DNA of 64,000 bases, taken from NCBI GenBank assembly GCA_021774575.1, contig JAJFIX010000045.1:142561-206560 (forward strand), given 5' to 3'. Made by a program: the position numbers and the translations under genes. Positions 1 through 18,321 of the stretch are shown in pieces. How positions within the stretch are numbered: the first letter of the stretch is position 1; every line of letters starts with the position of its first letter. The notes beneath the pieces were generated by a model that saw only the letters and a program-made list of their open reading frames with translations, was not told the origin of the DNA and did no database searches. Origin of the DNA: Alphaproteobacteria bacterium. Its GTDB lineage: Bacteria; Pseudomonadota; Alphaproteobacteria; UBA6615.

Positions 1-1152
1 TCATTCGGTTAATGCCGGAAGCGGCGCATAGTCGGGGAAACTCGGGGTCTCCACAGTTAATTCTGGGCCGCTCAGACTTTCCAGAAATGCGACGAGATCG
101 CTGACATCATCGTCCGTCAAATTAAGGGGGCTGATGAGCGCGGTTTTGGTCGCCCGAAAATCATTGTCACCGCCGCCCTCGTTATAAAACTCAACGACCT
201 GGCGCAAATCAGAGAAGGCACCGTTGTGCATGTAGGGCGCGGTATGGGCCGTGTAGCGAAGGGAGGGGGTGCGAAATTTACCCAAATCCCCATTTTGTTT
301 GGTCCGGTAATAGAGGCCGGCATCGTCTTTTAGAGTCCGATAAAAAGCTTCCGAGACCCCTTTCGAATATTGCTCATACCGAAAGGTTATTTGGGCGAGC
401 CCATCTTCGAGCCAACGTTGGGTTCGGGGGACGCCAATATTGTAATATCGTTGATCGGTGAGCAGCGGCCCGTTGTGGCATTCGATGCAATTCGCGGGAC
501 CGTTGAATAGGGCGAGCCCTCTTTTTTGCGCCTCGGTCAAAGCAGTGCGATCACCGTTCATGAAGAGATCAAAATCTGTGTCGCGTTGCACCAATGAACG
601 CTCGAAAGCGGCGATAGCCTGCCAGGCATTTCTCAGTTGCGGCCATCTATCCCCAAAGACGTCACGAAACCGCTCGCGATATTCGGGAATGAAGGCAAGT
701 CGCGCCTCCATCATATCCGCCTCGCCATTTCCCGCGACCGCACCGGAAGCGGCAGATGCCGCCTGGGATTCGAGGGACGTTGCAGCACCCGCCCAATCTA
801 ATTCGGCATAATAGGCGGAATTAACGATCGACTGACTATTGCGCCAGTGGACCGAACCCTGATAGCCCCGCGAAACATCGTCTGCAAAGGCCCACCCCTG
901 ATCGGGGACATGGCAGGAGACACAAGCGATCGACGTATCGCCGCTCAGCCGCGTGTCGAAAAACAACATTTTTCCGAGCTCGACTTTTTCCGGCGTAATC
1001 GGATTGTCGGCCCGTTCGGGCGGCGGTCCCAGCGGCGCCAGCGGCGGGTTTTCCTCGGCCAGCCCTACCCTGACCAGGGTCACGAAAGCGAGACCGAAAA
1101 CCGCCAGTCCGACCAGCCCGAACAGAAAATTATGTCGCCCCATGGCCTTCAT
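1..1152 (-). CDS. Di-heme cytochrome c peroxidase (CcpA/MauG family), periplasmic
   Basis: 383 aa with an N-terminal signal peptide. Two CxxCH heme motifs (CVSCH, CIECH). Overall similarity to bacterial CCPs. Confidence 0.85.
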   Translation of the reverse strand: MKAMGRHNFLFGLVGLAVFGLAFVTLVRVGLAEENPPLAPLGPPPERADNPITPEKVELGKMLFFDTRLSGDTSIACVSCHVPDQGWAFADDVSRGYQGSVHWRNSQSIVNSAYYAELDWAGAATSLESQAASAASGAVAGNGEADMMEARLAFIPEYRERFRDVFGDRWPQLRNAWQAIAAFERSLVQRDTDFDLFMNGDRTALTEAQKRGLALFNGPANCIECHNGPLLTDQRYYNIGVPRTQRWLEDGLAQITFRYEQYSKGVSEAFYRTLKDDAGLYYRTKQNGDLGKFRTPSLRYTAHTAPYMHNGAFSDLRQVVEFYNEGGGDNDFRATKTALISPLNLTDDDVSDLVAFLESLSGPELTVETPSFPDYAPLPALTE

Positions 1153-1160
1153 TCCGCCCC

Positions 1161-2756
1161 CTAGTTCCTAATCTTCGGCCAATTTTCAATCGCCAAGTAG
1201 CTGGTCGAAATATTTTCCTGCCAGACAAAGTCAGGCCCTGTAAGCGGTTCGCCCGACAGGGAAATCAGGAAATTTACCAAGTCACTTTGTTCCTCAATTG
1301 AAAGTCCCAGCGGTCGGATAAGCGGGTCTTTATTTTGATCCTGGCCGGCACCTTCGTTGTAGAATGCGACCACCTCATCAAGGGTCGCGAAAACGCCGTT
1401 ATGCATATAGGGCGCGGTATAGATTAATTCGCGTAAGGTAGGCGTCATAAAGGTTCCGATATCCGCCCCGTCCACCCGATGAGTTCGGACATGCGCGCCG
1501 ACATCGCGCCGGATATTCATATAGTTTTCAATGCCGATGAATTTTGCAAAGCTCACATAGGTGATGTGGCGCAGCGGGTCGGCCCAAATTTCTCGATTTT
1601 CCGGCACGGCGATATTGTGTGGCGTGTCATCGGTAAATCGAGATCCGGAATGGCAATTTGCGCAACCGGCCTTGCCGGAAAATAACCCCAGGCCACGTTG
1701 GGCCGACGGCGACAGGCTATTTGGAAATGGAGAATTTCGCGAGGTCAGGGTTTTTAGAAATTCGGGTATCGCGTTGCGAACCCCGCCGTTACTTGGCTCA
1801 CCCAAGCCTGCTTCAGCAAACATTCGGACATAGATGGGATCTTGTTTCAGCCGCTCTTGCATGAGCCGCATATCCATGTTCATGACATAGGTTTCGGTAA
1901 TCGACTCCCTGGTTACGTCATTGAGGTTTGTGCCTATTCGCCCATCATGAAACCAGGCCGATTTATGTGCTGTATTAATAAGGGTCGGTGTGTTGCGAAA
2001 TCCGAGAGATCCCGGATAGGCATTGGAAAGCGCCAACCCATCCGAAAAACCGTGCTCTGGATCGTGACAGGATGCACAGCTTATTGCCGCGTCGCCTGAA
2101 AGCCGAGGGTCAAAGAAAAGCCGCCTGCCCAGCTCGGCCATCCGCGCATCAAATTCGATTGGCGCGACAAAGCCATCCTCAAAGTTACCCCCTGTAGTAA
2201 CCGGCCCATTATTTGTCAGAATTTCTGGGAGCTGCGGGCCCAATATTTCGATCGGCACGACAGCCCCAACGTCTGTCGCCAATTCGACCAGAGGTCGCGG
2301 ATCCGCGCTCAAACTGTTTAAGAATAAAACCAAGTCGGCCCTATCGCCGGCATCCTCGATGCCGGGAAAATTCATTTTAGTGCCGGGCACGAATGTACGC
2401 GGATCTTCGAGAAAGGCGAGGAGTTCGCGCGCCCCCCAGCTACCTTGCTTTTGGCTCAATGAATTCGAATAGGAATATGTGCGAACTCTGGCAAATGGCC
2501 GCCCAAAAACATTCCAAAGACTAGGACCCACCCCAAATTGGCGTAGGCCAAAGCGATCAAACCCGTGACAACCCTGACACTGGCTGGATAATTCCTCTCC
2601 ACGAGCGCGGTTTGCACTGGCAAATAGGTTTTCCAGATTGACGTCGATCGGGTCAGCGACCGCCAGAGAGAACGAACTCAATAGCAATATGGCCGCACTG
2701 CCAATATTTAGTCCGCACCCTAAATAACCCATTCCCCCCCCAAAAAAGATCGGCAC
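1161..2756 (-). CDS. Tri-heme cytochrome c peroxidase family protein (YhjA-like: extra N-terminal c-type heme domain plus a CCP core)
   Basis: 531 aa with three CxxCH motifs (CQGCH, CASCH, CANCH) and a signal peptide. An alternative start at the second Met (about 2732) lies directly after a G8 run that could act as the RBS. It sits 8 bp upstream of the di-heme CCP, which suggests one operon. Confidence 0.75.
   Translation of the reverse strand: MPIFFGGGMGYLGCGLNIGSAAILLLSSFSLAVADPIDVNLENLFASANRARGEELSSQCQGCHGFDRFGLRQFGVGPSLWNVFGRPFARVRTYSYSNSLSQKQGSWGARELLAFLEDPRTFVPGTKMNFPGIEDAGDRADLVLFLNSLSADPRPLVELATDVGAVVPIEILGPQLPEILTNNGPVTTGGNFEDGFVAPIEFDARMAELGRRLFFDPRLSGDAAISCASCHDPEHGFSDGLALSNAYPGSLGFRNTPTLINTAHKSAWFHDGRIGTNLNDVTRESITETYVMNMDMRLMQERLKQDPIYVRMFAEAGLGEPSNGGVRNAIPEFLKTLTSRNSPFPNSLSPSAQRGLGLFSGKAGCANCHSGSRFTDDTPHNIAVPENREIWADPLRHITYVSFAKFIGIENYMNIRRDVGAHVRTHRVDGADIGTFMTPTLRELIYTAPYMHNGVFATLDEVVAFYNEGAGQDQNKDPLIRPLGLSIEEQSDLVNFLISLSGEPLTGPDFVWQENISTSYLAIENWPKIRN
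2734..2747. repeat. Homopolymeric tract C8 followed by A6 (G8/T6 on the coding strand) at the 5' end of the tri-heme CCP gene
   Basis: Read directly: cccccccc aaaaaa at 2734-2747. It falls in codons 4-8 of the longest ORF, or in the RBS region of the alternative start. Confidence 0.9.
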
Positions 2757-2956
2757 GGACTATGTTCCTGCTCGCATTCCGCAGCCGGTCATGAACAGGC
2801 GAAATGTGAACGGCACTATTTGTTGGACTTAAACTCGCGAATGGATCGCGTACCGAACCGTCGTACCGACCGTCATTTCGACGGGCCGACAAATACACGG
2901 CACCTTACCAAGTCGCGCCTAGGCATAGATCCTCGTTGGACAATGCATTTCTCGCA

Positions 2957-2970
2957 TTGACCTGGGTCAA
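2957..2970. promoter_or_regulatory. TTGAC-N4-GTCAA palindrome: candidate FNR/FixK (Crp-Fnr family) box upstream of the CCP operon
   Basis: TTGACCTGGGTCAA, a 14-bp dyad in the FNR/FixK format (TTGA-N6-TCAA). It lies about 200 bp upstream of the CCP start in the 274-bp intergenic region. Confidence 0.3.
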
Positions 2971-3030
2971 TTAATTAAACTTTGTGGGTAGGATGAGTGT
3001 GGCAACGCCGGGAAATGAAAAAACCGAATA

Positions 3031-3603
3031 CTAATTACTGTCTTTCCAGCGTTCGACGGTGCCGGTATCGATATCGAATAAATCGAGCAACCGGCCGACC
3101 GTATGGTTGATTACCTGATCGAGGGATTTCGGTCTCATATATAAAGCTGGCACGATGGGCGCGACGACCGCCCCCATTTCTGCAAGCTGGGTCATCGTTC
3201 GCAAGTGACCAACATGGAGCGGGGTCTCGCGAATGCCCAAAACGACACGCCGCCTCTCTTTCAGTGCCACGTCAGCGGCACGGGTCAGAAGCGTGTTTGT
3301 GATTCCGCTGGAAATTTCGCTCATGGTCTTGACCGAACAAGGCAGAATCAACATTCCCCGGGTTTGGTAGGACCCCGAAGAAATAGCGGCTCCTATGTCA
3401 CCGACTGGATAACTGACGGACGCCATTTCACGTAAGGTGGCTGGCTTAAAATCTGTCTCATATCCGAGTGTGAGTTCGGCAGCTTTCGACATCACAAGAT
3501 GGGTTTCGATATTTGTATCGCGCAATAACTCGAGCACGCGAACGCCATAAATCGCACCGGACGCACCGGATATGCCAATGATTAGGCGGTCGGTCGATGT
3601 CAT
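3031..3603 (-). CDS. ubiX: Flavin prenyltransferase UbiX
   Basis: 190 aa; N-terminus LIIGISGASGAIYGVRVLELL, typical of UbiX/Pad1. Confidence 0.9.
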   Translation of the reverse strand: MTSTDRLIIGISGASGAIYGVRVLELLRDTNIETHLVMSKAAELTLGYETDFKPATLREMASVSYPVGDIGAAISSGSYQTRGMLILPCSVKTMSEISSGITNTLLTRAADVALKERRRVVLGIRETPLHVGHLRTMTQLAEMGAVVAPIVPALYMRPKSLDQVINHTVGRLLDLFDIDTGTVERWKDSN

Positions 3604-3785
3604 GAATGTTGCCCGTCAATAGATCGAATAATATTCTTGGTAGGTCAATTCGGGCGATATTCCCGAAACCATTATGAGCGGCCAACAGAGCACACTTGCT
3701 CCCGCTTTTTCAATAGCCATAGCTTTCAGCAACCCAAGCTAAGGCGATTATAGTTGAAAGCTCATATATCGATTTGGGATAAAGT

Positions 3786-4256
3786 TTAGGCCGCTTCTTC
3801 GCACATTGACGGGTCGGATAGGACTAAATCCTCGACCAAATTAAGTAATTGCGACGGCAGGAACGGTTTTGACAGCACTCTATCGGCGCCGAGGCTTTTC
3901 GCCATTTCCAGGAACGAGAGATTTCCAGTCCGTCCACCGCCCGACATGGCGACAATCTTTACGTCATTGCATAAACGGCGCAATTCCAAGATCGTCTCTA
4001 TACCCTCTTTTTCCGGCATCATAATATCGGTCACAACGATGTCGGGTAGAGCCCTTTCAAAAACCTTCAGGCCATCCACACCATTGCACGCAGACTCAAC
4101 ATCATACCCGTTCTCGGCCAAAATATCGCAGACAGTCGCACGCATTTCCTCATTATCCTCAACGACCAAGGCTTTTAACCGCTGCTCGGTCTCCGATTTT
4201 TCATATTCGGACCGGAGGATTTCAGTACCATCCTCGACCCTGAAATAGTTCGCCAT
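3786..4256 (-). CDS. Single-domain response regulator (CheY-like receiver) with a roughly 30-aa N-terminal extension
   Basis: REC motifs are present (VVEDNEEM, VVTDIMMPEKEG, SKPF). I chose the start at MANYF because GGGAGGG lies 5 bp upstream. The longer ORF-track start at 4274 lacks an RBS. Confidence 0.8.
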   Translation of the reverse strand: MANYFRVEDGTEILRSEYEKSETEQRLKALVVEDNEEMRATVCDILAENGYDVESACNGVDGLKVFERALPDIVVTDIMMPEKEGIETILELRRLCNDVKIVAMSGGGRTGNLSFLEMAKSLGADRVLSKPFLPSQLLNLVEDLVLSDPSMCEEAA

Positions 4257-4634
4257 AAAACCCTCCCGTGGCAAATTTTACCTGATTTTGCGTAGACGAC
4301 GGAAGCGCGGTATCGGCACCAAATTTTGGATTGAAATACTGATACCTTAAATACCTTAAAAAACATTACATAAAAATTACCAAAACTTTATGCGGTGTGT
4401 ATTTGCGAAATATCAAGATTTGATAAAAGTTTTTAACAATTGAACAATATTTCCCCTCGGCGTCGGACGCCCAATTGACCAAAGGGTCTTTGCTAATTCC
4501 GACACCCGTTAATAAATCGGTAATCACTTTAGACATATTTTAAAATATGGATAGCACCATTTATATAGTCTCTTTGTATTGTCTTAGGATCCTTTAACGG
4601 CAATTTCGCTCGATATTTTAGGAACGCATCGCCA

Positions 4635-5834
4635 ATGAACGTCCACAAAGATAATAAATTGTTATCGGAAATCGCTCAGCCCTGGAGTTCGGTGCAGAAG
4701 TTTTCAGATGCACTACTCGGGCTGAATGTTGGCGTCGCCCTGTGGGATGCCGATGATCTGTTGGTTAAATGCAATGACTATTACCGGAATGCCCATCCCT
4801 TCGCCGCGGAGCATTTGCTGTCTGGCTCACGTTACGAGGATTTCATCCGCAGTGTTGCCAAGAATGCCTGCGTGCCTGAGGCCGCCGGACGAGAAGAGGC
4901 TTGGATCGCAGATCGTATGAAAACCCACAGAATTGCCGGAAGCATTACCGAGCAAGCGCATGGAACCAAATGGTACGAAGTCCGCAAACAGTTACTTCCC
5001 GACGGAAGTATGATCACCCTCTTTTTCGATATTACCGAACGCAAGAGAGTAGAGGAGCAGCTAGAGGCAACGCTGCAAAACCTTAAACGGTCGAACGAAG
5101 AGCTTGAGCGCTTCGCCTATGTCGCGTCCCACGACCTTCAAGAACCGCTGCGCAAAATCCAAATGTTTGGCGACCGGTTACAAAAAGATCTCGGCAGTGA
5201 GTCCTCCCAAAGCGCCGTGGAATATGTCGGCCGAATGAGGAACGCTTCGGCGCGCATGCAAGTGTTGATTAATGATCTTCTCTCTTTCTCCCGGCTCAAC
5301 ACGAACCAACAATCTTTCGAGCTTGTCGATCTCGATCAAATCGCCGCTGATGTGATTGCAAATTTGGAAGTTACCTTGGCCGAAACTGGTGCGACCGTCG
5401 ACCTGGGTCCTTTACCAGTTCTCTATGCCAATCCAACTCACATGTCGCGCCTGCTTCAAAACCTCATAGCGAATGCGATCAAATTTCATAAACCGGATCA
5501 AAAGCCGGTGGTAACAATACGTGGATCCAGCGCCGCCAACACCCAACCCCAAGGGCAAAATTTCACCAACTCCGAAATCTGCGAAATTACTGTCGCAGAC
5601 AATGGCATTGGATTTGAACCGGAATATAGCCACAAAATTTTTGAATTATTTCAGCGACTTCACGGTAGAAGCGAATTTGCGGGAACAGGACTCGGGCTGG
5701 CAATTTGCCGCCGCATTGTCGAGGCCCATAATGGCACAATTTCCGCTACAGGAATTCCTGGCAAAGGCGCGATATTTAAAATCCTCTTGCCCCTTCAACA
5801 ATCCCAGCAGGTAGAATTCGATGACGCAGCATAG
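4635..5834 (+). CDS. Cytoplasmic PAS-domain sensor histidine kinase with a bacteriophytochrome-type H-box
   Basis: No TM segment. N-terminal PAS-like region. HisKA signature ASHDLQEPLRKI. HATPase_c G-boxes (DNGIGF, GTGLGLAI). Confidence 0.85.
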   Translation: MNVHKDNKLLSEIAQPWSSVQKFSDALLGLNVGVALWDADDLLVKCNDYYRNAHPFAAEHLLSGSRYEDFIRSVAKNACVPEAAGREEAWIADRMKTHRIAGSITEQAHGTKWYEVRKQLLPDGSMITLFFDITERKRVEEQLEATLQNLKRSNEELERFAYVASHDLQEPLRKIQMFGDRLQKDLGSESSQSAVEYVGRMRNASARMQVLINDLLSFSRLNTNQQSFELVDLDQIAADVIANLEVTLAETGATVDLGPLPVLYANPTHMSRLLQNLIANAIKFHKPDQKPVVTIRGSSAANTQPQGQNFTNSEICEITVADNGIGFEPEYSHKIFELFQRLHGRSEFAGTGLGLAICRRIVEAHNGTISATGIPGKGAIFKILLPLQQSQQVEFDDAA

Positions 5835-6288
5835 CGGGATCAAAAACCATACAATAACCATCGTAATGGCCGATGACGATTGCGATGACAGAATGTTAAC
5901 GCGTGAGGCCCTAAACGACAGCAATCTTCTAAATGGATTTGATGAAGTCGAAGATGGCCAGGAACTTATGGATTATTTGCGCCGGACCGGTTCCTACAAG
6001 AATCTTGCCGGAACACCGCTGCCCGGGCTTATTTTGCTCGACCTAAATATGCCGCGCAAAGATGGGCGCGAGGCCTTAAGTGAAATTCGAGCCGATCCGG
6101 ATTTACGGAAAATTCCGGTTGTTGTTTTAACAACGTCCAAGGCGGAGGAAGATATTGCGCGAACTTATGATCTCGGCGTGAACTCTTTCATTGTTAAGCC
6201 AGTCTCGTTTGATGCCCTAACAAAGACAATGCGTGCATTCACCCAATATTGGGCAGAAGTCGTCGAACTTCCTAGACTTAGTGCCTAA
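5821..6288 (+). CDS. Single-domain response regulator (Rcp-like receiver)
   Basis: 155 aa; acidic pocket MADDDCDD, phospho-acceptor context LLDLNMPRKDG, and T/K motifs. Overlaps the upstream kinase by 14 bp. Confidence 0.85.
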   Translation: MTQHSGIKNHTITIVMADDDCDDRMLTREALNDSNLLNGFDEVEDGQELMDYLRRTGSYKNLAGTPLPGLILLDLNMPRKDGREALSEIRADPDLRKIPVVVLTTSKAEEDIARTYDLGVNSFIVKPVSFDALTKTMRAFTQYWAEVVELPRLSA

Positions 6289-6298
6289 GGAGCAAAGA

Positions 6299-7966
6299 AT
6301 GTCGAAGCCGGTACATGTTCTGTTAGTCGAAGACGACGAGGACGATTACATCCTGACCAAGGGCATGTTGATGGACTCACCCATTCGGCGATTTGAGATC
6401 AAATGGGTCGCTGATTACGACGAAGCCGTCCAGGTGATAAAATCGGCGAAATTCGACCTCTATCTGATCGATTATCGTCTTGGCAGAAAAGACGGGCTAG
6501 ACTTGGTGCGCGAAACAATCGCAGCCGGGTGCACGGCTCCTATAATTTTGCTAACGGGCCTGGATAATCGAGATATTGACGTCGAAGCAATGGAGGCCGG
6601 CGCCGCCGATTACCTTGTTAAGGGCCAAATGTCGCCGCTCATTCTGGAGCGCTCCATTCGATATGCGCTTGCTCGCCAGAATCACTTGGCAACAGAGCGA
6701 AAATCTAAGGAGATGCTCGAAAAAGCAAATAAACGCCTCGCCGAGCTTTACGAAAAAGCGCATCAGTCCGTCGATAACGTCTCCCACGAATTCCGGACGC
6801 CGCTCACCGTAGTCAAAGAATATAGCTCGATTTTACGCGACGGGCTGGGTGGCGAGATAAACGAAAAACAAAGGGAATTTCTGACAATCATCCTCGACAG
6901 GGTCGACGACTTGACCTTCCTGGTAGATGACATGCTCGACATCAGCAAACTCGAGGCCGATTTACTTTGCATTTATCGTCGGCGCACGCGCTTAAGCGAC
7001 GTTATCGACCGAATTCGCCCTATTCTTGAACGCAAGGCATTGGCCAATAACGGCAAACTAAAAATTGAAATTGACGACCCCGAACCATTCATTTATTGCG
7101 ATGGCGAAAAAATCGGTCGGGTCCTCATTAACCTCGCGGTCAATGCATATAAATTTTCAGGCGAGGGCGGCGTTGTCTCGATCATCGCCAAAGTCGACCG
7201 GGAAAGATCCGATCTGTGCGTTTCTGTTAGCGACAATGGCCCAGGTATTTCGCCAGAACAACTCCAACCCATATTTGACCGGTTCCAACAAGGAGATAGC
7301 CAGACCCGAAGTGCGACAAAGGGCTTTGGGCTTGGGTTGAATATTGCCAAAGAATTAGTCGAATTAAATTACGGCAATATTTCCGTATCTAGCGAAGTCG
7401 GAAACGGCAGTTGCTTTAGCTTCACTGTGCCCATTTTCGACCCGCTAACGGTTTTTGAACGCTATACCAGCGGCCTGTTACTGTCGGGCAACGGTTCTGC
7501 CGCTATCTCTCTAATTTCCGTAGGATTGGAACCAGGTGCGGATTTGGCGGGTGTCGAGGAGATAGAGCAAATCTTGCAAGTCCAATTGCGGCGGCACGAT
7601 TTACTCTTTGAGACGGGACCGAGCAAATGGGTCCTATGCTCAGCAGCGGACAATTCCGGCCCAGACCTTGTAATCGAAAAAATTTCAGAAGCCATAACAC
7701 AGGCTAATTCGTTCCTTCCCGAAGATGAATTGCCCCCTGTGTCGCTCAACATCATTGGGACATGGAAAGTACCAGGCGATATCGCCGGATTGTTTGCCCG
7801 ATTTAATCAAATTCGCGCTGCCGACGCCGGGAATAACAGCCATAACACGCACACGGAATTTGTGAATACCGCAACGTCAGACCTGCCGATTCCGTCGTTA
7901 CAGATTGAATTAGCTGGTAGCGAAAATGGACCAACACCAAATATAGGCGGCGAAATTGGAAGATAA
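6299..7966 (+). CDS. Response regulator-histidine kinase hybrid (REC-HisKA-HATPase) with an uncharacterised 180-aa C-terminal domain
   Basis: N-terminal REC (LLVEDDEDD, LIDYRLGRKDG), H-box SHEFRTPLT, and HATPase G-boxes (DNGPGIS, GFGLGLNI). The C-terminal 180 aa match no motif I recognise. AAGGAG precedes the 6299 ATG. The ORF-track start at 6233 is upstream of the stop of the previous gene. Confidence 0.85.
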   Translation: MSKPVHVLLVEDDEDDYILTKGMLMDSPIRRFEIKWVADYDEAVQVIKSAKFDLYLIDYRLGRKDGLDLVRETIAAGCTAPIILLTGLDNRDIDVEAMEAGAADYLVKGQMSPLILERSIRYALARQNHLATERKSKEMLEKANKRLAELYEKAHQSVDNVSHEFRTPLTVVKEYSSILRDGLGGEINEKQREFLTIILDRVDDLTFLVDDMLDISKLEADLLCIYRRRTRLSDVIDRIRPILERKALANNGKLKIEIDDPEPFIYCDGEKIGRVLINLAVNAYKFSGEGGVVSIIAKVDRERSDLCVSVSDNGPGISPEQLQPIFDRFQQGDSQTRSATKGFGLGLNIAKELVELNYGNISVSSEVGNGSCFSFTVPIFDPLTVFERYTSGLLLSGNGSAAISLISVGLEPGADLAGVEEIEQILQVQLRRHDLLFETGPSKWVLCSAADNSGPDLVIEKISEAITQANSFLPEDELPPVSLNIIGTWKVPGDIAGLFARFNQIRAADAGNNSHNTHTEFVNTATSDLPIPSLQIELAGSENGPTPNIGGEIGR

Positions 7967-8372
7967 ACCGACCGTCGTCGTCATTGACGATGACCTTCAC
8001 ATTACCGAGGCCTTGAGCCTCCGGCTGACTATGGCCGGGTGTAATGTACGAACCGCCGACAACGGCTATGCTGGCCTCGCCCTGATCAGCGAATGCAACC
8101 CGGATGCTGTTGTGCTCGACTTATCTATGCCTCAGATGGACGGAATAACAGTATTGACCAGTCTAAACGATAGCGGCCTCAACGAGGTCATCCCAGTCGT
8201 AGTTCTTACAGCTAGAGTCTCTGACAAGGTCAAACGAAGAGTAATGGAACTTGGCGCATATGGCTTCATCCAGAAACCTTATGACGCCGAATATTTGGTG
8301 ACAACATTGCAATCGGCAATTAGCAGGGGCCATCAGGATATGTCGCCAATGTCATTCACAGCACGGGGATAG
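7956..8372 (+). CDS. Single-domain response regulator
   Basis: 138 aa; VVVIDDD, VVLDLSMPQMDG, KPY. Apparent TTG start overlapping the hybrid kinase stop, so the start is uncertain. Confidence 0.75.
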   Translation: MEDKPTVVVIDDDLHITEALSLRLTMAGCNVRTADNGYAGLALISECNPDAVVLDLSMPQMDGITVLTSLNDSGLNEVIPVVVLTARVSDKVKRRVMELGAYGFIQKPYDAEYLVTTLQSAISRGHQDMSPMSFTARG

Positions 8373-8376
8373 CGTT

Positions 8377-9315
8377 ATGCCTGATCAAAAAACTGTTTTC
8401 ATTGCCGCGCACGATCCGCAATTTCTGCAACAAATTACCAAGCGCTGCGCAGGTCTTGGTCTGGACGTGCACTCGGCGTCAGACGGCATGGATGCGTTAT
8501 GGCAAATATTGAACGGTCAATTTGGATTGCTCATTCTCGATTGCGATATGCCGGGCACGGATTGGTTTGACCTTGCGGAAAAATTGAAGATAAAAAGTAG
8601 TCAAAAACCGGTTTCCCAACCGATTCCCAAACCAATTCCCATCGTCGCCCTTGGTCAAGATTCCGAGCAAGACCATGAAGAGCGCTGGGCTGCTTTAAAC
8701 GCCTATTATTGCCATAAGGGCCTTGATACCTGGGCCAATTTGCGATCCATTATTTCCAAAGAATTCGACCTTCAAACACCCGGCTCGTGCATAATCGACA
8801 CGGTTCCTGTACTCGAGACCGCCCCTGTTCGACCGCCTAAAATTCTCGTCGTCGATGACGACCTCCGAATCACGGCTGTGATGAAATATCGGCTTGAGGC
8901 ATTTGGCCTGACGGTGTTTCGGGCCAAAGACGCCACCGAAGGCGCGGCAATGGCGGTAAAGGAACTTCCAGACCTCATTATCACCGACTACAATATGCCG
9001 GGAGGTAGTTCCGGCGAAAATATGGTCTTTACTCTGAAGAGAATTGAGACAACCAAGAACATCCCGGTCATTGTCGTCACGGGCCAAAATATGGACGGGC
9101 GAACCGACTTTGTGCTGCGCCGTGAAATGTTAGGCAGGGGCGGGGCGCAGGCCTACCTGGAAAAACCATATGATTTTGACCAACTGGTCGCTGAAATACG
9201 AAAATTGATCCGTATTCCGGAAAAAACCGACGCCCCTGTAGCTCCCCAGTCAAAGGCGAGCACACAGAAAGAAGCGCATGGTTCGCCAGCAACGCTGTTA
9301 GCTGTCGGCAACTGA
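8377..9315 (+). CDS. Tandem-receiver protein (REC-linker-REC) with no output domain
   Basis: 312 aa. The C-terminal REC is canonical (ILVVDDD, IITDYNMPGG, KPY). The N-terminal REC-like domain is divergent (ILDCDMPGTD). The linker is Pro-rich. Confidence 0.75.
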   Translation: MPDQKTVFIAAHDPQFLQQITKRCAGLGLDVHSASDGMDALWQILNGQFGLLILDCDMPGTDWFDLAEKLKIKSSQKPVSQPIPKPIPIVALGQDSEQDHEERWAALNAYYCHKGLDTWANLRSIISKEFDLQTPGSCIIDTVPVLETAPVRPPKILVVDDDLRITAVMKYRLEAFGLTVFRAKDATEGAAMAVKELPDLIITDYNMPGGSSGENMVFTLKRIETTKNIPVIVVTGQNMDGRTDFVLRREMLGRGGAQAYLEKPYDFDQLVAEIRKLIRIPEKTDAPVAPQSKASTQKEAHGSPATLLAVGN

Positions 9316-9393
9316 CTTAGGGGAAATATTCCATCTGAGAAGACGGCGAAATTATATTTTCGGCGAGCGGCCGGATCGAATAATCCTTCGCCC

Positions 9394-9906
9394 TTATTCG
9401 TATTGGATCAATACCGCGAGGACGCCAGAGTAGTTGCCCGCAGGCTGGCCGGAGCCTAGATTGAGTGTGGCGCCAATCCTAATAGCGTATTGAAAATCGG
9501 CCGAATCTATTATGCCGTGGGATAGAGAAAAATTCTCCGCCGTTAAACTGTCATTTCCCGACCATAGGACCACCATTTGCACCGGTAATTTTATTTGGTA
9601 CCTGCTGTAGCCGCCGATCGAGCCAAACATTGCTGGTCGACCGCCGGCAATTTCACTGACACTGCCAGAACTATGAATTTTCGCGTCGGCGCCGATCGTC
9701 AGCGTTCCGCCTCCCACGCCGGAAACAATATGATTAACGCTGAGATGCTGTAGGGCGACGACTGACGTCGTTTCGAAAACTTGGACCGTTGCCGTGCCCG
9801 TTGCAGTCGCACCCGCCCAAACGGAAGCAATACTCGCATGAACACACACGGCGGCAATGATTGCGCCAAGCTGAAGCTTACCCCGTATTTTCCTGCAGAA
9901 CACCAT
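9394..9906 (-). CDS. Secreted beta-rich protein, DUF4402-like (SCPU/Csu-pilin-like fold family)
   Basis: 170 aa with a signal peptide. Gly/Thr/Ser-rich with a C-terminal ...GATLNLGSGQPAGNYSGVLAVLIQYE motif resembling DUF4402. No adjacent chaperone or usher. Confidence 0.45.
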   Translation of the reverse strand: MVFCRKIRGKLQLGAIIAAVCVHASIASVWAGATATGTATVQVFETTSVVALQHLSVNHIVSGVGGGTLTIGADAKIHSSGSVSEIAGGRPAMFGSIGGYSRYQIKLPVQMVVLWSGNDSLTAENFSLSHGIIDSADFQYAIRIGATLNLGSGQPAGNYSGVLAVLIQYE

Positions 9907-10061
9907 CGCAAATATATTTGGCCTTCAACAATTTCTGGGCGGAAAGAGCTCGAAAATGCTTATATGGCACCGTTACGATATCATGGCCTTGTGTGAGCAC
10001 TTTCGTTCAACTGTTAAAATTTATCTAACAGAAATTTAAGAGATCAGGCTTGAGCTAAATA

Positions 10062-13000
10062 TTACTCGTGCGGCCCCAGCCTCGCCCGAATTCGCTTTGC
10101 CAATTCCGCCTTACTATAGGGCTTACGCAATAGGTCTCCCACAAGTTCAGCGCGAAACGTCGAATCACCTAATTCTTGCTGAGACCAATCCGCAGCAAAG
10201 CCCGATGTGAGCAATATTTTTATATCCGGACGCGCCCTATTTGTGTCCATTGCAAGACGAAACCCATCGATTCCGCTCGGCATGACGATATCGGTAAATA
10301 ATAAATCAATTTTTTCCGGCCCACCAATAATCTCAAGGGCTTGCTTACCATCGCTTGCCGCAAGCGTGTCATACCCCAACTCAGTCAAATGCGAGACGGC
10401 AATATCGAGTAGATCCTCTTCATCTTCGACGACAAGGATAACCTCACTACCTTGAGGCAGCACCTCTTCGTTTTTACTCTCGATCTCCGCCTCATCCGAG
10501 AGCCCGATTGCTCGGGGCAAAAAGAGTCGAAACACCGTGCCTTTCTCGAGTTCGGACTCCAACTCAATATGACCGCCGGAACGTTCGACAAACCCATACA
10601 CCATACTAAGGCCTAGGCCAGTTCCTTTACCTCTCGGCTTCGTCGTGAAAAATGGGTCAAATATACGCTCGCGGAGTTCTTCGGCTATGCCCGTACCCGT
10701 ATCGGATACCGAGACCATGACAAATTCTCCGGGCCGACTTCCTGGATGACGTTTTACATATTCCTGGTCCAGCACTTTATTGGCAGTCAAGAGTTTCAGC
10801 GTGCCGCCATCAGGCATAGCATCGCGGGCATTTAATGTAAGATTGACGATTACGTCATCAAAATCCCCCGGATCAAAATCGGCATTCCATAAATCTTGGG
10901 ATAGCTGAGTAATCACCGCAATCCCAGAGTTTCCGGATTTAGAAATCATTTCTCTAAGATCGAGCAAGCATTTGTTCGCCGATGAAATCTGTTTTCCAGA
11001 GGAGGTAACACGCGAAAAGCTCAGCAGTCGCTCGGTAAGCGCGGCACCACGATTAACCCCCCGAAGTGCGGTCTCAATATGTTTCATCGCCACCTGATCT
11101 TCGGATCTAATCACTTTTAACAATTCCAAATTTCCCATGACGATACTCAAAATATTATTGAAATCATGGGCAATCCCACTCCCCATTTCACCGACCGCCT
11201 GCATTTTTTGCGCATGGTATAGCTGTTCGTCATGGGCCCTTTCGTCGGTTATATCGTGCAAAACACCAGTGGCACGAGTTGCTTTTCCGTCTTCGTCACG
11301 CAAGCATTTTGCTTGGGTTTGAAATAGACGGTAACTACCATCTTTTTTCCGCAATCGATATTCGCACGACCATGTGTTCTCACCTCCGTCGAGAAAGGCT
11401 TCAAATTCTTTGATAATGCGAGGACGTTCTTCAGGGTGCAAATGCGCCCTTAACGTATCTTGGCTGGAGCTAAGTTCACCAATGTCATAGCCCAGCATTT
11501 CGCCAAATCTCTCGGAGAAAAACATCTGCTTTCTCGCGACTTCTAAATCCCAGACCGCGTCCGAAATGGCACCCGTCGCCAACCGGTACCGTTCCTCATT
11601 TTCCTGCAGGGCGGTGGCAATTTTTCTCTGCTGTGTAATATCGGTTGAAATGGTTCCGACATATTGGATATTGCCATGCGCATCATGTATCGGAAATTTT
11701 GTCGCCTGAATTGCAATTTCCTCACCTTCGTTTTGCCACGATATGACACGCATCATATCTACCCCGGTGCGAAAAACTTGCTCATCAAAACCGGCCGATG
11801 CTGTGGCTAAAGGATGCTCGGAAACATTGCGCGGATTTTCCCAGAGCGCTTCATTCAAACCAATGCCCAGACGCTCTCTCGCAACGGCGTTGGCGATTTT
11901 CAAATCACCCTTTCGGTCTTTTACACTGATGCCGGTCGGCGCATTATCCAGGATTGCAGCCAGAAGTCCCTCACTTTCCTGGCGCGCGAATTCGGCTTCT
12001 TTCAACTCCGTAACATCGCGCCCTGTTGACTGATATTCCGCAATTTCTCCATTTGCCCCGGGAATTGCCGTAACCAGCCATTGATACGCTCGCTTCTCTC
12101 CATCCGCGCGAGTCAATACGCCGTGAAAAGTTATCGGTTCTGAGCCCGGCTTAATCTGCGCAATACTCGCCATAAATCTTTCCCGATCGGCCGGTTCCAT
12201 TCTCTGGCCGAACGGTGTGCCAACCAGTTCATCGAAAGATTTTTGATAGACCCGCTGATAGGCCAAATTGACGAAGCTGATGCTTTCGTCGGGCCACCAG
12301 CGGCTTACGGCCTCCTGCTGGCTATCGACAACGGCACGATAGCGCCCATCACTTTTTTCCAGGGCGCCAGTCGTTTTCATATGTTCCGCTATTTCGGCCG
12401 TAAGCGCCTCCTTACTCGCTCGCTCTGAAATTACTCTGTTAACGGTTGACGCAAATAGAAAAGCAAGGGCGATGCCAAGCACTGCGAAAAGGTTTCGGGC
12501 TACGCCCGTGTTCTCAACACCATGTTCAAGGGCTAAGGCTTGCCAAAAAACAAACGTAATAGTCAGAATTGCCAGGGCAGAAGATATGCCAAGCCAATGC
12601 GGAAATCGCACCAAATTATGCCGCGCTGTTTGCCAGGCAAGAGCCAACAATCCGACGCCCAAAGCAACAAAGCCCAAGGACGTATGCAATGCCATGCGAG
12701 TGAATCGCCCCCAGCCATATGCCCCTTCGAGCCCGACTACATAGCCGAGTGTGGCAACAGTTCCTAGGCCCAGAACTGCCGATCCAATTAATCCAAGGAG
12801 TAGTCCGTCGCCGCGACCTTTATCTATTTTCGATAATAGAATTGCGGCGGCAACAAGCATGAACGATAGGGCGGTATTTGGCGCCATTCGGCCCGGATGC
12901 GAGGTTTGCACGGTTACATAGTGCTGCATCAGAAACTGATCAATGCCCAGGTCGATACTAAAAACATACTGAGATATGGTTAGAAGCCCGAGCGCCATTA

Positions 13001-13247
13001 CGGTCACCGCAAGACCTGTTGCCAGTCGATCTTGCGCAATGACTAAAGCAGTCAGCGCCAGCCCACTCAATACAAATCCAAGAGCCGTATTGTATTGCAT
13101 AGGCACGAGGGCAGGGCTCAATTGAACGAGCAAAACAGAATGGGTGTGCCAGCCAATAAATGCCACAAAGCCCAAAAACGCTGCCATTCCTCCGGCAACG
13201 AAACCAAGAATTCTGTATTTTTCAGTCGAGCAATTATTAAATCTCAT
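10062..13247 (-). CDS. Hybrid sensor histidine kinase: polytopic membrane sensor domain, multiple PAS, HisKA, HATPase, C-terminal REC
   Basis: 1061 aa with about 8 predicted TM helices at the N-terminus. H-box [21 protein letters not shown]-boxes, and a C-terminal receiver ([24 protein letters not shown]). Confidence 0.9.
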
Positions 13248-16065: not shown

Positions 16066-16815
16066 CTATGCAGCTGCTATTCCGCCACCGGGTCCTTGTC
16101 CGACATGAATTCTTCCACCGCCTGCTGGATTGATACCCAAGGGGTCGCGCAACCGATACCCATACCCCCACACAGTTTCAATGTAGTCGTCCCCACCGAG
16201 GTTGTTCGAAAGTTTTTTGCGTAGGTTGCAGATGAACACGTCAATGACAGTCTCATCATGTGATTCGGCCCCCTCATAGAGATGCTGAATGAAGGCCAGC
16301 TTCGCCAAAATTGTCCCGCGCCGCATACTAAGCAATTCAATAATTTTATATTCCGTGGCCGTCAGATGAATGAAACAATCGTCGATTTCGACGGTGCGCG
16401 CTTCCAAATTTACCCGCATCTTGCCGACCTCGACAATCGACGTCGAATGCCCGCGAAACCGGCGAACGAGAGCTTGGATGCGCGCGATAAACTCGCGCTC
16501 ATCAAATGGCTTGGTTAGGCAATCATCCGCGCCAGCATTAAACCCCTCAATTTTAAAACCAATGCCCGACGAATCCGACATTATGAGGATTGGCGTGTCG
16601 TTTTTGACCATCCTCAACTTCTTTAGGAGTTCGTAGCCAGGCATGCCATTCGAACCAAGATCCACAACGATAATGTCATAGTCCTGCAGCTTATTGATTT
16701 CCACATTACTGTCATTCAGCTCGTGCGAATGGCAAATGAACCCAACCGACGTTAACATCGACGGGACAACATTTTCCTTCACCGACCCCTCAAAGAACAG
16801 CAAAGCCCTCATCAA
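16066..16815 (-). CDS. CtrA-family (OmpR-type) response regulator paralog with a degenerate receiver acidic pocket and a Gly-rich C-terminal tail ending AAA
   Basis: 249 aa, collinear with CtrA. Shared blocks include DVFICNLRKKL, IETVWGYGYRLRDP and TATEYKIIELLSMRRGT. The N-terminal LLFFEGS replaces the conserved LLIEDDS. The C-terminus is ...GPGGGIAAA. Confidence 0.75.
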   Translation of the reverse strand: MMRALLFFEGSVKENVVPSMLTSVGFICHSHELNDSNVEINKLQDYDIIVVDLGSNGMPGYELLKKLRMVKNDTPILIMSDSSGIGFKIEGFNAGADDCLTKPFDEREFIARIQALVRRFRGHSTSIVEVGKMRVNLEARTVEIDDCFIHLTATEYKIIELLSMRRGTILAKLAFIQHLYEGAESHDETVIDVFICNLRKKLSNNLGGDDYIETVWGYGYRLRDPLGINPAGGGRIHVGQGPGGGIAAA

Positions 16816-17199: not shown

Positions 17200-18321
17200 A
17201 TGAAAAATTGGGAAGAGGCCACCTCCAAAATGGACGAAACAAATGCATGTTTCGGCATTCGGAAAATCTTTCCGGCTGGTCTCGGGCTGCTATTTGCCAC
17301 CACAGTTGCATTCGGCGTGGCACATGATACGTCGCTCTCAGTCTCAGTTGCCTCGACAAACATCGATCAGCATTCAACAAGCGGCCTGAATGTTGCAGCG
17401 TTTGCGAATGCCGGCGGCTCAGAAATATTGACACCTTTTAGCGCCGCTCAATTGATTGATTGGCCAAATAACAGCGAACAAATAAGCCATGGCATCAAAA
17501 TTGGGATGATTGACGGAGGCGTCAACAAGAACCATCCGGCGCTACACAACCAGGATATTACGACGCGAGAATTCACAGCAAACGGCGCCACACCAGTCCA
17601 ATTGGACCATGGGACCGCCGTTGCGTCCCTTCTTGTCGGCAACCCAAGCACCGGAGACCTGCGCGGGTTACTACCAAATGCCACCCTATTTGCGGCAAAT
17701 ATTTTTAGCCAAGACCGGAATGGGCGCATTATCGGAGACCCAATGGCTTTTTCGAACGCCATCGATTGGCTTATCGATATGGACGTTTCAGTCATCAATG
17801 TCAGCCTTACCGGCAAAACCAACGGCCATATGGAGCGCGCGATCAACAAAGCAGTGGAGCACGGCATTCTTGTGGTCGCCGCCGCCGGAAACAATCGAGG
17901 CAATAGCGGTCGAGACTATCCCGGCGCCTATCGAAATGTCCTGGCGGCAACCGCGGTTGATGCGGATCTGAATATTTATGCCTATGCAAGTCTTGGCAGT
18001 CACGTTGATTTCGCCGCACCGGGGGTTTCCCTACGAATGGCCTCCAATAGTGGATCGGAAGTATTAAGCGGAACGTCGTTTGCCGCGCCATTTCTCACCG
18101 CCACTGTCGCGCTGTCGTTACGAGACCAGGGCGCGATCAACGCCAGCACCATTCGAACACGGCTTTCAAATACGGCCAGGGACCTCGGTAGGGCCGGGCT
18201 CGACCAAGTTTTTGGGTACGGTCTGCTTGATGCCACCAGCAATGAAGGCTTGGTGGCCCAAGTTGACCGGAGGCCTAGCCGGGTCACCCCGATAGGGGCC
18301 CGCAGGTTAACAGCGAATTAA
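17200..18321 (+). CDS. Subtilisin-like serine protease (peptidase S8), secreted or membrane-anchored
   Basis: 373 aa. Catalytic triad contexts IGMIDGG (Asp), DHGTAVAS (His) and GTSFAAPF (Ser). A hydrophobic segment sits at residues 24-40. RBS GAGGGA. Confidence 0.85.
   Translation: MKNWEEATSKMDETNACFGIRKIFPAGLGLLFATTVAFGVAHDTSLSVSVASTNIDQHSTSGLNVAAFANAGGSEILTPFSAAQLIDWPNNSEQISHGIKIGMIDGGVNKNHPALHNQDITTREFTANGATPVQLDHGTAVASLLVGNPSTGDLRGLLPNATLFAANIFSQDRNGRIIGDPMAFSNAIDWLIDMDVSVINVSLTGKTNGHMERAINKAVEHGILVVAAAGNNRGNSGRDYPGAYRNVLAATAVDADLNIYAYASLGSHVDFAAPGVSLRMASNSGSEVLSGTSFAAPFLTATVALSLRDQGAINASTIRTRLSNTARDLGRAGLDQVFGYGLLDATSNEGLVAQVDRRPSRVTPIGARRLTAN

Follow-up and report, generated by a model that had tools for sequence, protein, structure and literature searches.

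Where does the signal go in a two-component operon that encodes kinases and receiver (REC) domains, and no DNA-binding protein? The question is raised by six genes (g1–g6, positions 3786–9315) in a 64,000-nucleotide stretch of DNA from an alphaproteobacterium, referred to here as the window. A first-pass annotation had read these genes as a dedicated multi-receiver unit, with its output either placed elsewhere, at the end of a phosphorelay or phosphate-sink network, or residing in the C-terminal domain of a hybrid kinase.

A tight operon of kinases and receivers

The ORF listing and Pfam confirmed the content of the block and its order of receivers and kinases, including the two kinases (g2 and g4). 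The number of receivers, however, is six (one each in g1, g3, g4 and g5, two in g6, none in g2) and not seven as first counted. Both kinases, and all but one of the six receivers, have complete active-site residues. As the annotation had stated, Pfam finds no HTH, EAL, CheA/CheW/MCP, methylesterase or sigma-factor-like module in the six proteins; it finds no Hpt domain in them either.

Genes g2–g6 (4635–9315, forward strand) form one tight operon, encoding in turn a PAS kinase, an Rcp1-type receiver, a REC-kinase with a degenerate GGDEF domain (dGGDEF), a receiver and a REC-REC protein. The overlaps and coupling noticed earlier are real: g2 runs 14 nt into g3 and g4 runs 11 nt into g5, while 10 nt separate g3 from g4, which is preceded by AAGGAG, and 4 nt separate g5 from g6. 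Promoter-like and terminator-like sites within the block were no more numerous than expected from shuffled sequence.

The first gene of the operon, g2 (4635–5834, forward, 399 aa), encodes a cytoplasmic sensor histidine kinase (PAS_7-HisKA-HATPase_c by Pfam) with the H-box SHDLQEPLR and complete N, G1, F and G2 boxes. Translationally coupled to it is g3 (5821–6288, forward, 155 aa; Pfam REC), a single-domain response regulator of the Rcp1/RcpA/RcpB type, whose closest solved structures are 5te9 (E-value 1.7e-39), RcpB (1k66, 1.1e-31), and RcpA (1k68) and Rcp1 (1i3c, 3e-30). Alignment to CheY shows a canonical acceptor site (D-D, D, T, K). The pair resembles the cyanobacterial phytochrome pairs Cph1-Rcp1 and CphA/B-RcpA/B (1i3c, 1k68, 1k66), in that g3 clearly belongs to the Rcp1-type subfamily (E ~1e-30) and is translationally coupled to a HisKA kinase with a SHDLQEPL-type H-box; the sensor, however, is PAS_7 instead of phytochrome, and the pair sits inside a larger five-gene module.

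At the other end of the operon, g5 (7956–8372, forward, 138 aa; Pfam REC, 92 bits) is a stand-alone receiver with canonical residues, starting at a TTG inside the 3′ end of g4. The dual-receiver protein g6 (8377–9315, forward, 312 aa) has two REC stretches in Pfam, joined by a Pro-rich linker. Its C-terminal receiver (8842–9198, forward) is canonical by Pfam and residue analysis, whereas the N-terminal one (8392–8751, forward; Pfam, 33.7 bits) is degenerate, with A-H for the acidic pair, G at the position of the conserved Thr/Ser, and eight inserted residues. This degeneracy is confined to the window and is not seen in the g6-like proteins of relatives.

The remaining gene, g1 (3786–4256, reverse strand, 156 aa; Pfam Response_reg, 76 bits), is transcribed divergently from g2–g6, probably from an ATG at 4256 with GGAGGG 5′ of it. 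It encodes a stand-alone receiver with a canonical acceptor site (E/D, D, S and K aligned with CheY D13, D57, T87 and K109). The AT-rich region between the divergent genes (4257–4634) is presumably the promoter region for both g1 and the operon. It contains short repeats (ATACCTTAA as a tandem pair, and two copies of CAATTGA[A/C]CAA spaced 35 nt apart), and the GC content of 4001–6000 is 0.47; promoter-like matches around the region were not above chance. Since no g1-like orthologue was found in the related loci described below, g1 does not belong to the conserved module, although divergent REC genes do recur upstream in L003, L088 and L097.

The central kinase carries a degenerate GGDEF domain

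The signature gene of the module is g4 (6299–7966, forward, 555 aa), whose REC-HisKA-HATPase_c-dGGDEF architecture follows from Pfam and homologue coverage; homologues span ~90% of the protein, C-terminal domain included. The N-terminal receiver (6317–6673, forward; Pfam REC, 56.9 bits) has its phospho-acceptor Asp in LIDYRLG, as indicated by CheY alignment and conservation. The kinase core (6770–7432, forward; HisKA and HATPase_c in Pfam) is closest among solved structures to HK853 (2c2a, 7e-34) and the hybrid kinase 6qrj, and its H-box, SHEFRTPL, contains the H-E-x-x-T phosphatase motif. In the family alignment the acidic D12, the phospho-acceptor D58 and T86 are nearly invariant, and K108, H163, N282, D312/G314/G316 and G342/G344/G346 are invariant.

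Beyond HATPase_c lie ~175 C-terminal residues, for which the sequence in the window has no Pfam match. A profile of the g4 family, however, matches GGDEF domains of diguanylate cyclases in the PDB (9p6j, 1e-5; DosC, 0.02), and among 41 members of the dGGDEF family five match Pfam GGDEF and seven GGDEF_2. The AlphaFold model of the domain has a pLDDT of 88.7; its best Foldseek matches are GGDEF domains, at moderate similarity (TM 0.5–0.62, E ~1e-3), and hhalign places it in register with true GGDEF. The palm domain spans 7430–7834 (forward), with a non-conserved tail after it (7835–7963, forward). Grouped at 50% identity, the domain forms 560 clusters, and the proteins that carry it, of ~520 aa, nearly always have it at the C-terminus.

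The C-terminal domain of g4 thus has a GGDEF-like fold that has lost GG(D/E)EF and kept RxxD. From the translation and the alignment with true GGDEF, RRHD (7589–7600, forward) is the retained inhibitory-site (I-site) RxxD motif; across the family its Arg is present in 116/120 and its Asp in 115/120 sequences, and 108/120 have a third Arg 27 residues further on. In contrast, the catalytic hairpin, aligned to GGEEF, reads GPSKW (7616–7630, forward), with a family consensus of g-p-g-r-W in which the W occurs in 119/120. In strand 1, S-L-I stands in place of the metal-binding Asp, and the palm is minimal, with a single helix between its first two strands and without the second, GTP-binding helix. 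Loss of the hairpin, the Asp and the second helix makes cyclase activity very unlikely. The earlier statement that the block lacks GGDEF therefore holds for a catalytic domain, and fails for a diverged one.

Such a domain more probably serves as an input, through regulation or ligand binding, or as a scaffold; an enzymatic output is the less likely role. The dGGDEF domain is probably a c-di-GMP or regulatory input. A link to c-di-GMP is suggested by its company: among the best 120 homologues, 12 (~10%) carry a fused N-terminal REC-GGDEF with intact RSTD...GGEEF, in L004 REC-GGDEF is a separate gene adjoining upstream, and in L090 an HDOD gene follows the module. The domain in the window is itself divergent, carrying Lys where the family has Arg as the third I-site residue, and lacking the family's N-R-N-R-P motif, so ligand binding may be weakened or different here.

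CckA and ShkA are c-di-GMP-binding kinases, as is RavS (PMC6707612). [quoted passage not shown] The R, D and third Arg of the dGGDEF family mirror R763/D766/R794 of SgmT (PMC3509222). However, SgmT is GAF-HK-REC-GGDEF, as opposed to REC-HK-dGGDEF; its GGDEF domain (GGGVF) is still seen by standard models, whereas the palm of g4 is much reduced and missed by Pfam; and SgmT signals to the DNA-binding regulator DigR, whereas the partners of g4 in the module are stand-alone receivers.

The module is conserved without an output regulator

The arrangement is not due to chance: the same module and gene order are found at >20 loci on unrelated contigs. One or more stand-alone REC genes lie directly 3′ of the REC-HK-dGGDEF gene in every locus with downstream sequence (the window, L002–L004, L082, L084, L086, L087, L089, L090, L094, L095, L097–L102, L104 and L107). 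The first of these is g5-like in each such related locus, and between one and four single REC genes come after the kinase, depending on the locus. A g6-like REC-REC protein, or a fusion of g5 and g6 into REC-REC-REC, occurs in 12 loci; the fusions, in L002, L082 and L084, provide a Rosetta-stone link between the two genes. Full-length g6 homologues never carry an output domain.

The 5′ half of the module is more variable. A sensor kinase followed by a g3-like receiver occurs in at least nine loci, and the pair lies 5′ of g4 in the window, L003, L082, L086, L087, L090, L092 and L097. The kinases at the g2 position are g2-like with interchangeable sensors (CHASE, PAS, REC-PAS or none). In L002, L004, L089, L094, L099, L100, L102 and L104 the g2/g3 half is absent or replaced, so the link between g2 and g4 is less conserved than that between g4 and its receivers.

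No output regulator is conserved beside the module in ~25 related loci, where flanking genes are unrelated, and no chemotaxis system recurs there. This bears out the view of the block as a dedicated multi-receiver unit without local DNA-binding or enzymatic output. The host proved to be alphaproteobacterial, as labelled; named relatives of the module, however, are almost all Planctomycetota, which makes phylogenetic profiling across alphaproteobacteria, as first proposed, the wrong place to look. The GC content of the block is 0.47–0.51, against 0.55–0.59 in the metabolic genes. The module is typical of Planctomycetota, and this alphaproteobacterium possibly gained it by horizontal transfer; the horizontal-transfer reading rests on few named matches and a modest GC difference.

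Discussion

We consider it somewhat probable that g2–g6 are a two-tier cascade of two-component proteins, conserved and lacking a transcription factor, which acts through single-domain receivers. The g2 PAS kinase would sense a cytoplasmic cue, autophosphorylate, and pass phosphate to the coupled receiver g3, to the N-terminal receiver of g4, or to both. The phosphorylation state of the latter would gate the kinase/phosphatase balance of the g4 HisKA core, and g4 would in turn phosphorylate the receivers coupled to it downstream (g5 and, in g6, the C-terminal REC). Output would be through protein–protein contacts of the single and dual receivers with targets encoded elsewhere, while g3, and possibly g1, may be competing acceptors or sinks that shape timing. 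Gene order, coupling and precedent are the sole grounds on which we infer this direction of flow.

The precedent for two tiers is CheA3-CheS3-CheY3 of Rhodospirillum centenum, in which the first kinase phosphorylates the N-terminal receiver of the second, which alone phosphorylates a single-domain response regulator (PMC3868531). That cluster also lacks a transcription factor. Its first kinase, however, is a CheA inside a full Che cluster, whereas here it is PAS-HisKA and a Che cluster adjoins only the relative L087; CheS3 has neither a GGDEF-like domain nor a REC-REC partner.

An unlikely alternative is a phosphate-sink network or classical phosphorelay, in which most receivers drain or shuttle phosphate between the kinases and the real regulator is elsewhere. 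Consistent with it are the many stand-alone receivers per kinase and their varying number after the kinase, which suggests modulators over fixed effectors. A similar output-less system of kinases, dual REC and REC is the RedCDEF ‘four-component’ system of M. xanthus, whose logic is receiver competition and shuttling and whose receivers can return phosphate to the kinase-like protein (PMC2755868). Like g2–g6, the operon encodes two-component proteins exclusively and no output domain; its products are one kinase, another protein of kinase type, a REC-REC protein and a single-domain receiver. The likeness is one of architecture, and there are differences: the Red system has four genes against five (plus one) here, RedE is incapable of autophosphorylation whereas g4 has the full set of kinase boxes, the Red kinases lack the N-terminal receiver and GGDEF-like domain of g4, and RedC is membrane-bound. 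A canonical His-Asp-His-Asp relay, one of the early suggestions, depends on an Hpt domain, which neither the block nor the rest of the window was found to contain. Furthermore, the module keeps orthologous g5-like and g6-like partners whose active sites are intact and which fuse with each other, a pattern that better fits dedicated effectors. As regards g3 and g1, the sink reading is compatible with the two-tier cascade.

DivK and CpdR of Caulobacter are single-domain receiver hubs, as is MrrA (PMC5964349), and there too stand-alone receivers work by protein–protein interaction, as phosphate hubs or sinks. PopA is REC-REC-degenerate GGDEF, with its I-site serving as a c-di-GMP receptor. Neither these hubs nor PleD/PopA are orthologous to the module, in which the degenerate GGDEF is on the kinase and not on a receiver protein.

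Transcriptional output through OmpR-family regulators of the same signalling island is a more doubtful proposition. All two-component genes of the window lie within 3.8–20.5 kb, among them an OmpR-family candidate at 16066–16815 and, besides a lone REC, two OmpR-type regulators without an adjacent kinase (18496–19176 and 19189–19956). In some relatives, too, a DNA-binding response regulator lies within 10 kb, of sigma-54 type in L004 and of GerE type in L089, L090, L099, L100 and L107 (divergent and upstream in the last three). The candidates in the window, however, are 6.7–10.6 kb away in other transcription units and adjoin two other hybrid kinases, which are more obvious partners. In relatives the regulators differ in family and are missing from most loci, so no DNA-binding partner is conserved with the module.

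It is very improbable that output comes from g4's own C-terminal domain, whether as a nucleotide cyclase or comparable enzyme or as an effector-binding module. It is the sole domain of the operon from outside two-component signalling, is strongly conserved across its 560 clusters and has a palm fold; against an enzyme stand the g-p-g-r-W hairpin, which is family-wide, the S-L-I in place of the metal Asp and the missing GTP-binding helix. A role as an effector-docking surface is possible. Least probable of all is an accessory arm of a chemotaxis-like pathway: besides the CheA3-CheS3-CheY3 precedent, the module in L087 lies directly 3′ of MCP-CheA-CheB, with a sensor kinase bearing an N-terminal REC, and L107 has a lone CheR gene nearby, but other related loci have no Che genes, the input in the window is a PAS kinase, and CheA, CheW, MCP, CheB and CheR were undetected there by Pfam on the larger ORFs and by searching every ORF of 70 aa or more with seeds (for CheA, MCP and CheB, none for CheW or CheR).

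The g2–g6 operon is a variant within bacterial two-component signalling and not a new kind of system. The dGGDEF domain of its central kinase, which goes unseen by standard annotation, would most likely be a second input, with c-di-GMP bound at the kept I-site, or else a docking or dimerisation surface. If it binds c-di-GMP, g4 would integrate phosphorylation with the level of a second messenger.

Organization of the signalling operon

The ORF listing and Pfam search placed a single-receiver (REC) gene, g1, on the minus strand (3786-4256; likely start ATG at 4256, with GGAGGG ahead of it), divergent from five genes on the plus strand: g2 (4635-5834, PAS_7-HisKA-HATPase_c), g3 (5821-6288, REC), g4 (6299-7966, REC-HisKA-HATPase_c with a C-terminal extension of ~175 residues), g5 (7956-8372, REC, TTG start) and g6 (8377-9315, REC-linker-REC). 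The g2-g6 genes form a single, tightly packed operon; the overlap is 14 nt for g2/g3 and 11 nt for g4/g5, while g3 and g4 are separated by 10 nt, with an AAGGAG ribosome-binding site ahead of g4, and g5 and g6 by 4 nt. A motif scan found no promoter or terminator matches above shuffle expectation within the g1-g6 block, and an Rfam search of 3000-10500 returned no families, neither a c-di-GMP riboswitch nor any other known RNA. The divergent intergenic region (4257-4634) is AT-rich and carries a tandem ATACCTTAA ATACCTTAA at 4342-4359, as well as two copies of CAATTGA[A/C]CAA, at 4437 and 4472 (35 nt apart); these repeats may be operator sites or may have arisen by chance. All matches of the six proteins to NCBIfam equivalog or subfamily models fell far under the curated cut-offs, and in an exact-sequence cluster look-up of eight window proteins, the six among them, every one was a singleton at 90% identity.

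By their motifs, g2 and g4 are HisKA-type histidine kinases. In both, Pfam HisKA and HATPase_c score over cut-off and the H, N, G1, F and G2 boxes are complete (H-box SHDLQEPLR in g2 and SHEFRTPL in g4; DNGxG and GxGLGL present). The kinase-box residues are invariant across the g4 family, and the g4 kinase core also carries the H-E-x-x-T phosphatase motif.

The first-pass annotation had claimed seven receivers; we count six REC domains in the block. We judged them by the residues of CheY (acidic pair D12/D13, phospho-acceptor D57, T/S87 and K109). On alignment to CheY, all of these positions (acidic pocket, phospho-acceptor Asp, Thr/Ser, Lys) are canonical in g1, g3, the N-terminal domain of g4, g5 and the C-terminal domain of g6. 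The N-terminal receiver of g6 has A-H at the acidic pair, Gly at Thr87 and an 8-residue insertion, and scores only 33.7 bits against Pfam REC; it is canonical in homologues and degenerate only in the window. Full-length g6 homologues make up ~25 clusters (34-43% identity), none with an output domain. The g6 family alignment (A4) also showed two near-invariant cysteines, at positions 24 and 104, in a repeated R-C-x-x-L-G context; in this part of the window g6 (8377-8751) the first is kept, the second is replaced by Trp, and the 8-residue insertion is Pro-rich. PDB matches of g3 (phmmer) included RcpB (1.1e-31), RcpA (4.2e-31) and Rcp1 (3.3e-30), with CheY at just ~1e-11. Taking as Rcp1-type a stand-alone REC of ~150 aa that has a C-terminal extension and is nearest to the phytochrome-associated Rcp1/RcpA/RcpB, we assign g3 by sequence to the single-domain response regulators of this type.

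Conservation of the module

We collected neighbourhoods of related genes by exact-protein look-ups, a genome scan and a metagenome scan, and annotated the loci with seed searches and HMMs for REC and for the C-terminal domain of g4 (dGGDEF, see below). The genome scan, run with a full-length g4 alignment, caught generic kinase motifs, and among the matches listed only L002-L004 were true members of the family; the metagenome scan, run with a closer dGGDEF subset alignment, gave 15 loci. The sequence of L091 is that of L084, and L106, whose g6 homologue lies on a contig of poor quality with genes split, was uninformative. The same gene order recurs in more than 20 loci, which rules out chance clustering and bears out the earlier view of the block as real and non-random.

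In all ~20 loci that have downstream sequence, one to four stand-alone REC genes directly follow the REC-HK-dGGDEF gene. A g6-like REC-REC gene lies downstream in the window and in L004, L086, L087, L089, L090, L095, L102 and L107, and g5-like and g6-like parts are fused as REC-REC-REC in L002, L082 and L084. Upstream, a g2-like kinase and a g3-like REC are found in the window, L003, L082, L086, L087, L090, L092 and L097; L084 has this pair downstream rather than upstream. The sensor part of the g2-like kinase varies across loci (PAS_7, CHASE, CHASE-PAS, REC-PAS or none). L086 matches the five genes of the window exactly (323-151-547-137-292 aa, with 4-nt overlaps). No orthologue of g1 was found in the related loci, and divergent single REC genes lie upstream in L003, L088 and L097.

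The largest version of the module is at 3356-13812 of L090 (Phycisphaerae bacterium RAS1, GCA_007859745.1), in the order PAS-HK, REC, REC-HK, REC, REC-GGDEF-REC-HK-dGGDEF (852 aa), three single RECs, REC-REC and an HDOD protein. Strain RAS1 is cultured, and thus offers a possible experimental system.

A literature search found no description of a Planctomycete system of this kind. The module amounts to a conserved and as yet uncharacterised version of multi-component two-component signalling; for the host genome alone, this is an annotation improvement rather than a new principle.

A degenerate GGDEF-like domain in the g4 kinase

The C-terminal sequence of the window g4 alone had no Pfam match, even at E=10. 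Homologues of g4 span ~90% of its length, the C-terminal region included, and a profile of 41 C-terminal domains (alignment A2) matched 9p6j (1e-5) and DosC (0.02) best in the PDB, with GGDEF proteins accounting for five of the seven listed matches. Pfam detected GGDEF in 5 and GGDEF_2 in 7 (weakly) of these 41 family members, so that 12 of the 41 match one or the other, and in one g4 homologue, P0048, the C-terminal domain exceeds the Pfam GGDEF gathering score. The AlphaFold model of the domain (pLDDT 88.7, pTM 0.82) has the order alpha-beta-alpha-beta-beta-alpha-beta-alpha, and Foldseek ranked GGDEF domains of the PDB as its closest structures: 3ezu, GcbC (5euh), Dcsbis (4zmm), DosC and PleD (TM 0.5-0.62, E as low as 7e-4). 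Profile and predicted structure thus identify the C-terminal domain of g4 as a GGDEF-like palm fold. The statement of the first-pass annotation that the block has no GGDEF was right for the catalytic motif, which is absent (GPSKW), but not for the domain.

HMMER and hhalign aligned R-R-s-D-L-L-F-r-x-g-p-g-r-W of the family on R-x-x-D-L-L-L-R-W-G-G-E-E-F of cyclases; the aligned stretch in the window g4 (7589-7630) is RRHDLLFETGPSKW. Here GG(D/E)EF has become GPSKW and the catalytic hairpin is gone. In addition, the metal-binding Asp of GGDEF strand 1 is replaced by S-L-I, and strands 1 and 2 are joined by one helix, not two. We reject the reading as an active diguanylate cyclase because the GG(D/E)EF motif is lost.

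An intact inhibitory site (I-site) of GGDEF domains consists of RxxD five residues ahead of the hairpin and a downstream Arg (PleD R390, SgmT R794). The RxxD motif is kept in the window g4 as RRHD, and is near-universal in the family: R431 is present in 116 and D434 in 115 of 120 homologues, and 119 of them have W444. At a position 27 residues past the I-site Asp, 108 of the 120 have a further Arg; in the window g4 it is Lys. We also noted an N-R-N-R-P...L-P motif in ~80-90% of the 120 members, one with no counterpart in canonical GGDEF descriptions. Residues 470-474 of the window g4 (7706-7720) read NSFLP where the family has NRNRP, and from its sequence we regard the window g4 as a divergent member of the dGGDEF family.

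Searched against 1.84 billion representative proteins, the dGGDEF profile matched 560 clusters (at 50% identity) with E<=1e-3, and 381 at E<=1e-10. Truncated proteins aside, the domain almost always occupies residues ~375-520 of proteins of ~520 residues. REC-HK-dGGDEF is a coherent architecture that has been left unannotated; its diagnostic domain is missed by standard annotation.

A probable link to c-di-GMP

Among the 120 best g4 homologues, 12 (658-862 aa, most ~850) have a GGDEF domain ahead of their g4-like part. One of them, P0022, examined in full, is a REC-GGDEF-REC-HK-dGGDEF protein with an intact RSTD...GGEEF; L004 has this REC-GGDEF as a gene of its own, directly ahead of the kinase gene. 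The GGDEF fusions argue that kinases of this family act in concert with c-di-GMP synthesis; they fit a putative receptor role for the relic I-site. The module of L090 ends with an HDOD gene.

In SgmT, a kinase with a degenerate GGDEF domain, R763, D766 and R794 have been shown to bind c-di-GMP (PMC3509222), and the RxxD and downstream Arg of the dGGDEF family match this arrangement. For the window g4 itself, binding of c-di-GMP is possible, though we would sooner expect it to be absent, because of the Lys substitution and the missing NRNRP.

Output of the module

The first-pass annotation held that the output is not encoded locally, and the neighbourhoods agree with it. Pfam confirmed that the six proteins have no HTH, EAL, Che or sigma-type domains. 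From one locus to the next the genes flanking the module change completely; among them are transporters, a tRNA synthetase, hopanoid genes and sulfatases. DNA-binding response regulators lie within 10 kb in a minority of loci and belong to differing families (sigma-54 type in L004; GerE type in L089, L090, L099, L100 and L107). Neither a conserved output regulator nor a Che system was found beside the block.

A minor alternative is that the block acts on transcription through two OmpR-type regulators of the window that have no adjacent kinase. All two-component genes of the window lie between 3.8 and 20.5 kb; the OmpR-type regulators and a second lone REC are in separate transcription units at least 6.7 kb from g6.

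The label of a multi-step phosphorelay, which would need an Hpt (or a Spo0B-like transferase) between two receivers, fails. Pfam found no Hpt in the six proteins and a seed search of limited sensitivity found none in the window; among relatives, only L088 has a weak Hpt gene. A classical His-Asp-His-Asp phosphorelay is thus rejected.

A Che system is rejected because its genes are absent: no CheA, CheW, MCP or CheB/CheR was found in the block or window (Pfam, and a seed search with CheA, MCP and CheB seeds). Only in L087 (1-7668) does a Che-like cluster (CheW, MCP, CheA-REC, CheB) lie directly upstream of the module, the first kinase of which bears an N-terminal REC. Downstream of the module in L107 (10252-15706), the opposite strand has genes for a REC-HK protein, for CheR and for a protein of 1075 aa that ends in three RECs.

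Host and origin of the block

The glucose-6-phosphate dehydrogenase of the window is 64-68% identical to Hyphomicrobiales/Rhodobacterales enzymes (Roseibium, Nitratireductor, Afifella), indicating that the host is an alphaproteobacterium. The best g4 matches share just 46-52% identity, and the named g4 relatives are all Planctomycetota (Phycisphaerae, Pirellulales, Thermoguttaceae, Planctomycetaceae); one g6 homologue is in a Dongiaceae MAG. GC content is 0.47-0.51 in the block versus 0.55-0.59 in the metabolic genes of the window. From these sequence features, horizontal acquisition of the block appears plausible.

The block belongs to a signalling island of 17 kb, outside which no kinase or receiver genes were detected in the 64-kb window. 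The island includes a tandem pair of PAS-rich HK-REC hybrid kinases on the minus strand (10062-13247 and 13313-15934, the second with a 4HB_MCP_1 sensor), three OmpR-family regulators (16066-16815, 18496-19176 and 19189-19956; two without an adjacent kinase), a subtilase (17200-18321) and a lone REC (20052-20480). A gene for a 170-aa DUF4402 protein (9394-9906, minus strand), whose hydrophobic N-terminus is a putative signal peptide, separates the receiver operon from the hybrid kinases; this gene was not found beside the module in relatives. Immediately upstream of g1 (1-3603, minus strand) are a tandem pair of CCP_MauG genes (di-haem cytochrome c peroxidases) and a gene for a UbiX-like flavoprotein, unrelated to the module in relatives. 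A sugar-metabolism region (36347-59061), with GC content 5-8 points over that of the signalling island, contains an FGGY kinase, DUF4432, zwf (the glucose-6-phosphate dehydrogenase), two dehydratases of the ILVD_EDD (dihydroxy-acid/6-phosphogluconate) family, and PfkB-DUF2090 and TPP-enzyme genes, taken as iolC-like and iolD-like.

Discussion

Adjacency, translational coupling and precedent suggest that g2 most likely phosphorylates the receiver of g3, of g4 or of both. The g4 receiver would gate the g4 kinase core, which would in turn phosphorylate g5 and g6, and the output would be protein-protein interaction of the g5 and g6 receivers. The dGGDEF domain would most likely act as an additional input for regulation, or else as a surface for docking.

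Two described systems support such a flow from g2 through g4 to g5 and g6. In the CheA3-CheS3-CheY3 cascade, the first kinase acts on the receiver of the second, and the second is the only one to phosphorylate a single-domain regulator (PMC3868531). RedCDEF, which has no output domain, combines a kinase and a kinase-like protein with one dual and one single receiver, and involves back-transfer from REC to kinase (PMC2755868); the likeness, set by description, is in architecture alone, and RedE is described as non-autophosphorylating, in contrast to g4 with its intact kinase boxes. By analogy, RedCDEF, CheA3/CheS3 and SgmT are the nearest relatives of the module in logic.

A broader reading, tentative and on present evidence unlikely to hold in full, is that REC-HisKA-HATPase-dGGDEF proteins are a new family of doubly gated kinases, controlled by the phosphorylated receiver and by c-di-GMP at the relic I-site, with dedicated stand-alone and dual receivers and a purely protein-protein output, common in Planctomycetota and transferred horizontally to the alphaproteobacterium. 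If this is true, the question of the missing 'output' of the kinase becomes directly testable.

Few response regulators are as abundant and as poorly understood as single-domain receivers and, to our knowledge, signalling in Planctomycetota is almost unstudied. The work defines a compact recurring module, in which the signature kinase is accompanied by one to four stand-alone receivers and commonly by a dual receiver as well, and which by sequence has a clean diagnostic domain and natural fusions to a predicted active diguanylate cyclase. It provides a concrete system for asking how phosphorylation cascades free of transcription factors yield an output, and whether relic GGDEF I-sites can tie c-di-GMP to the control of kinases.
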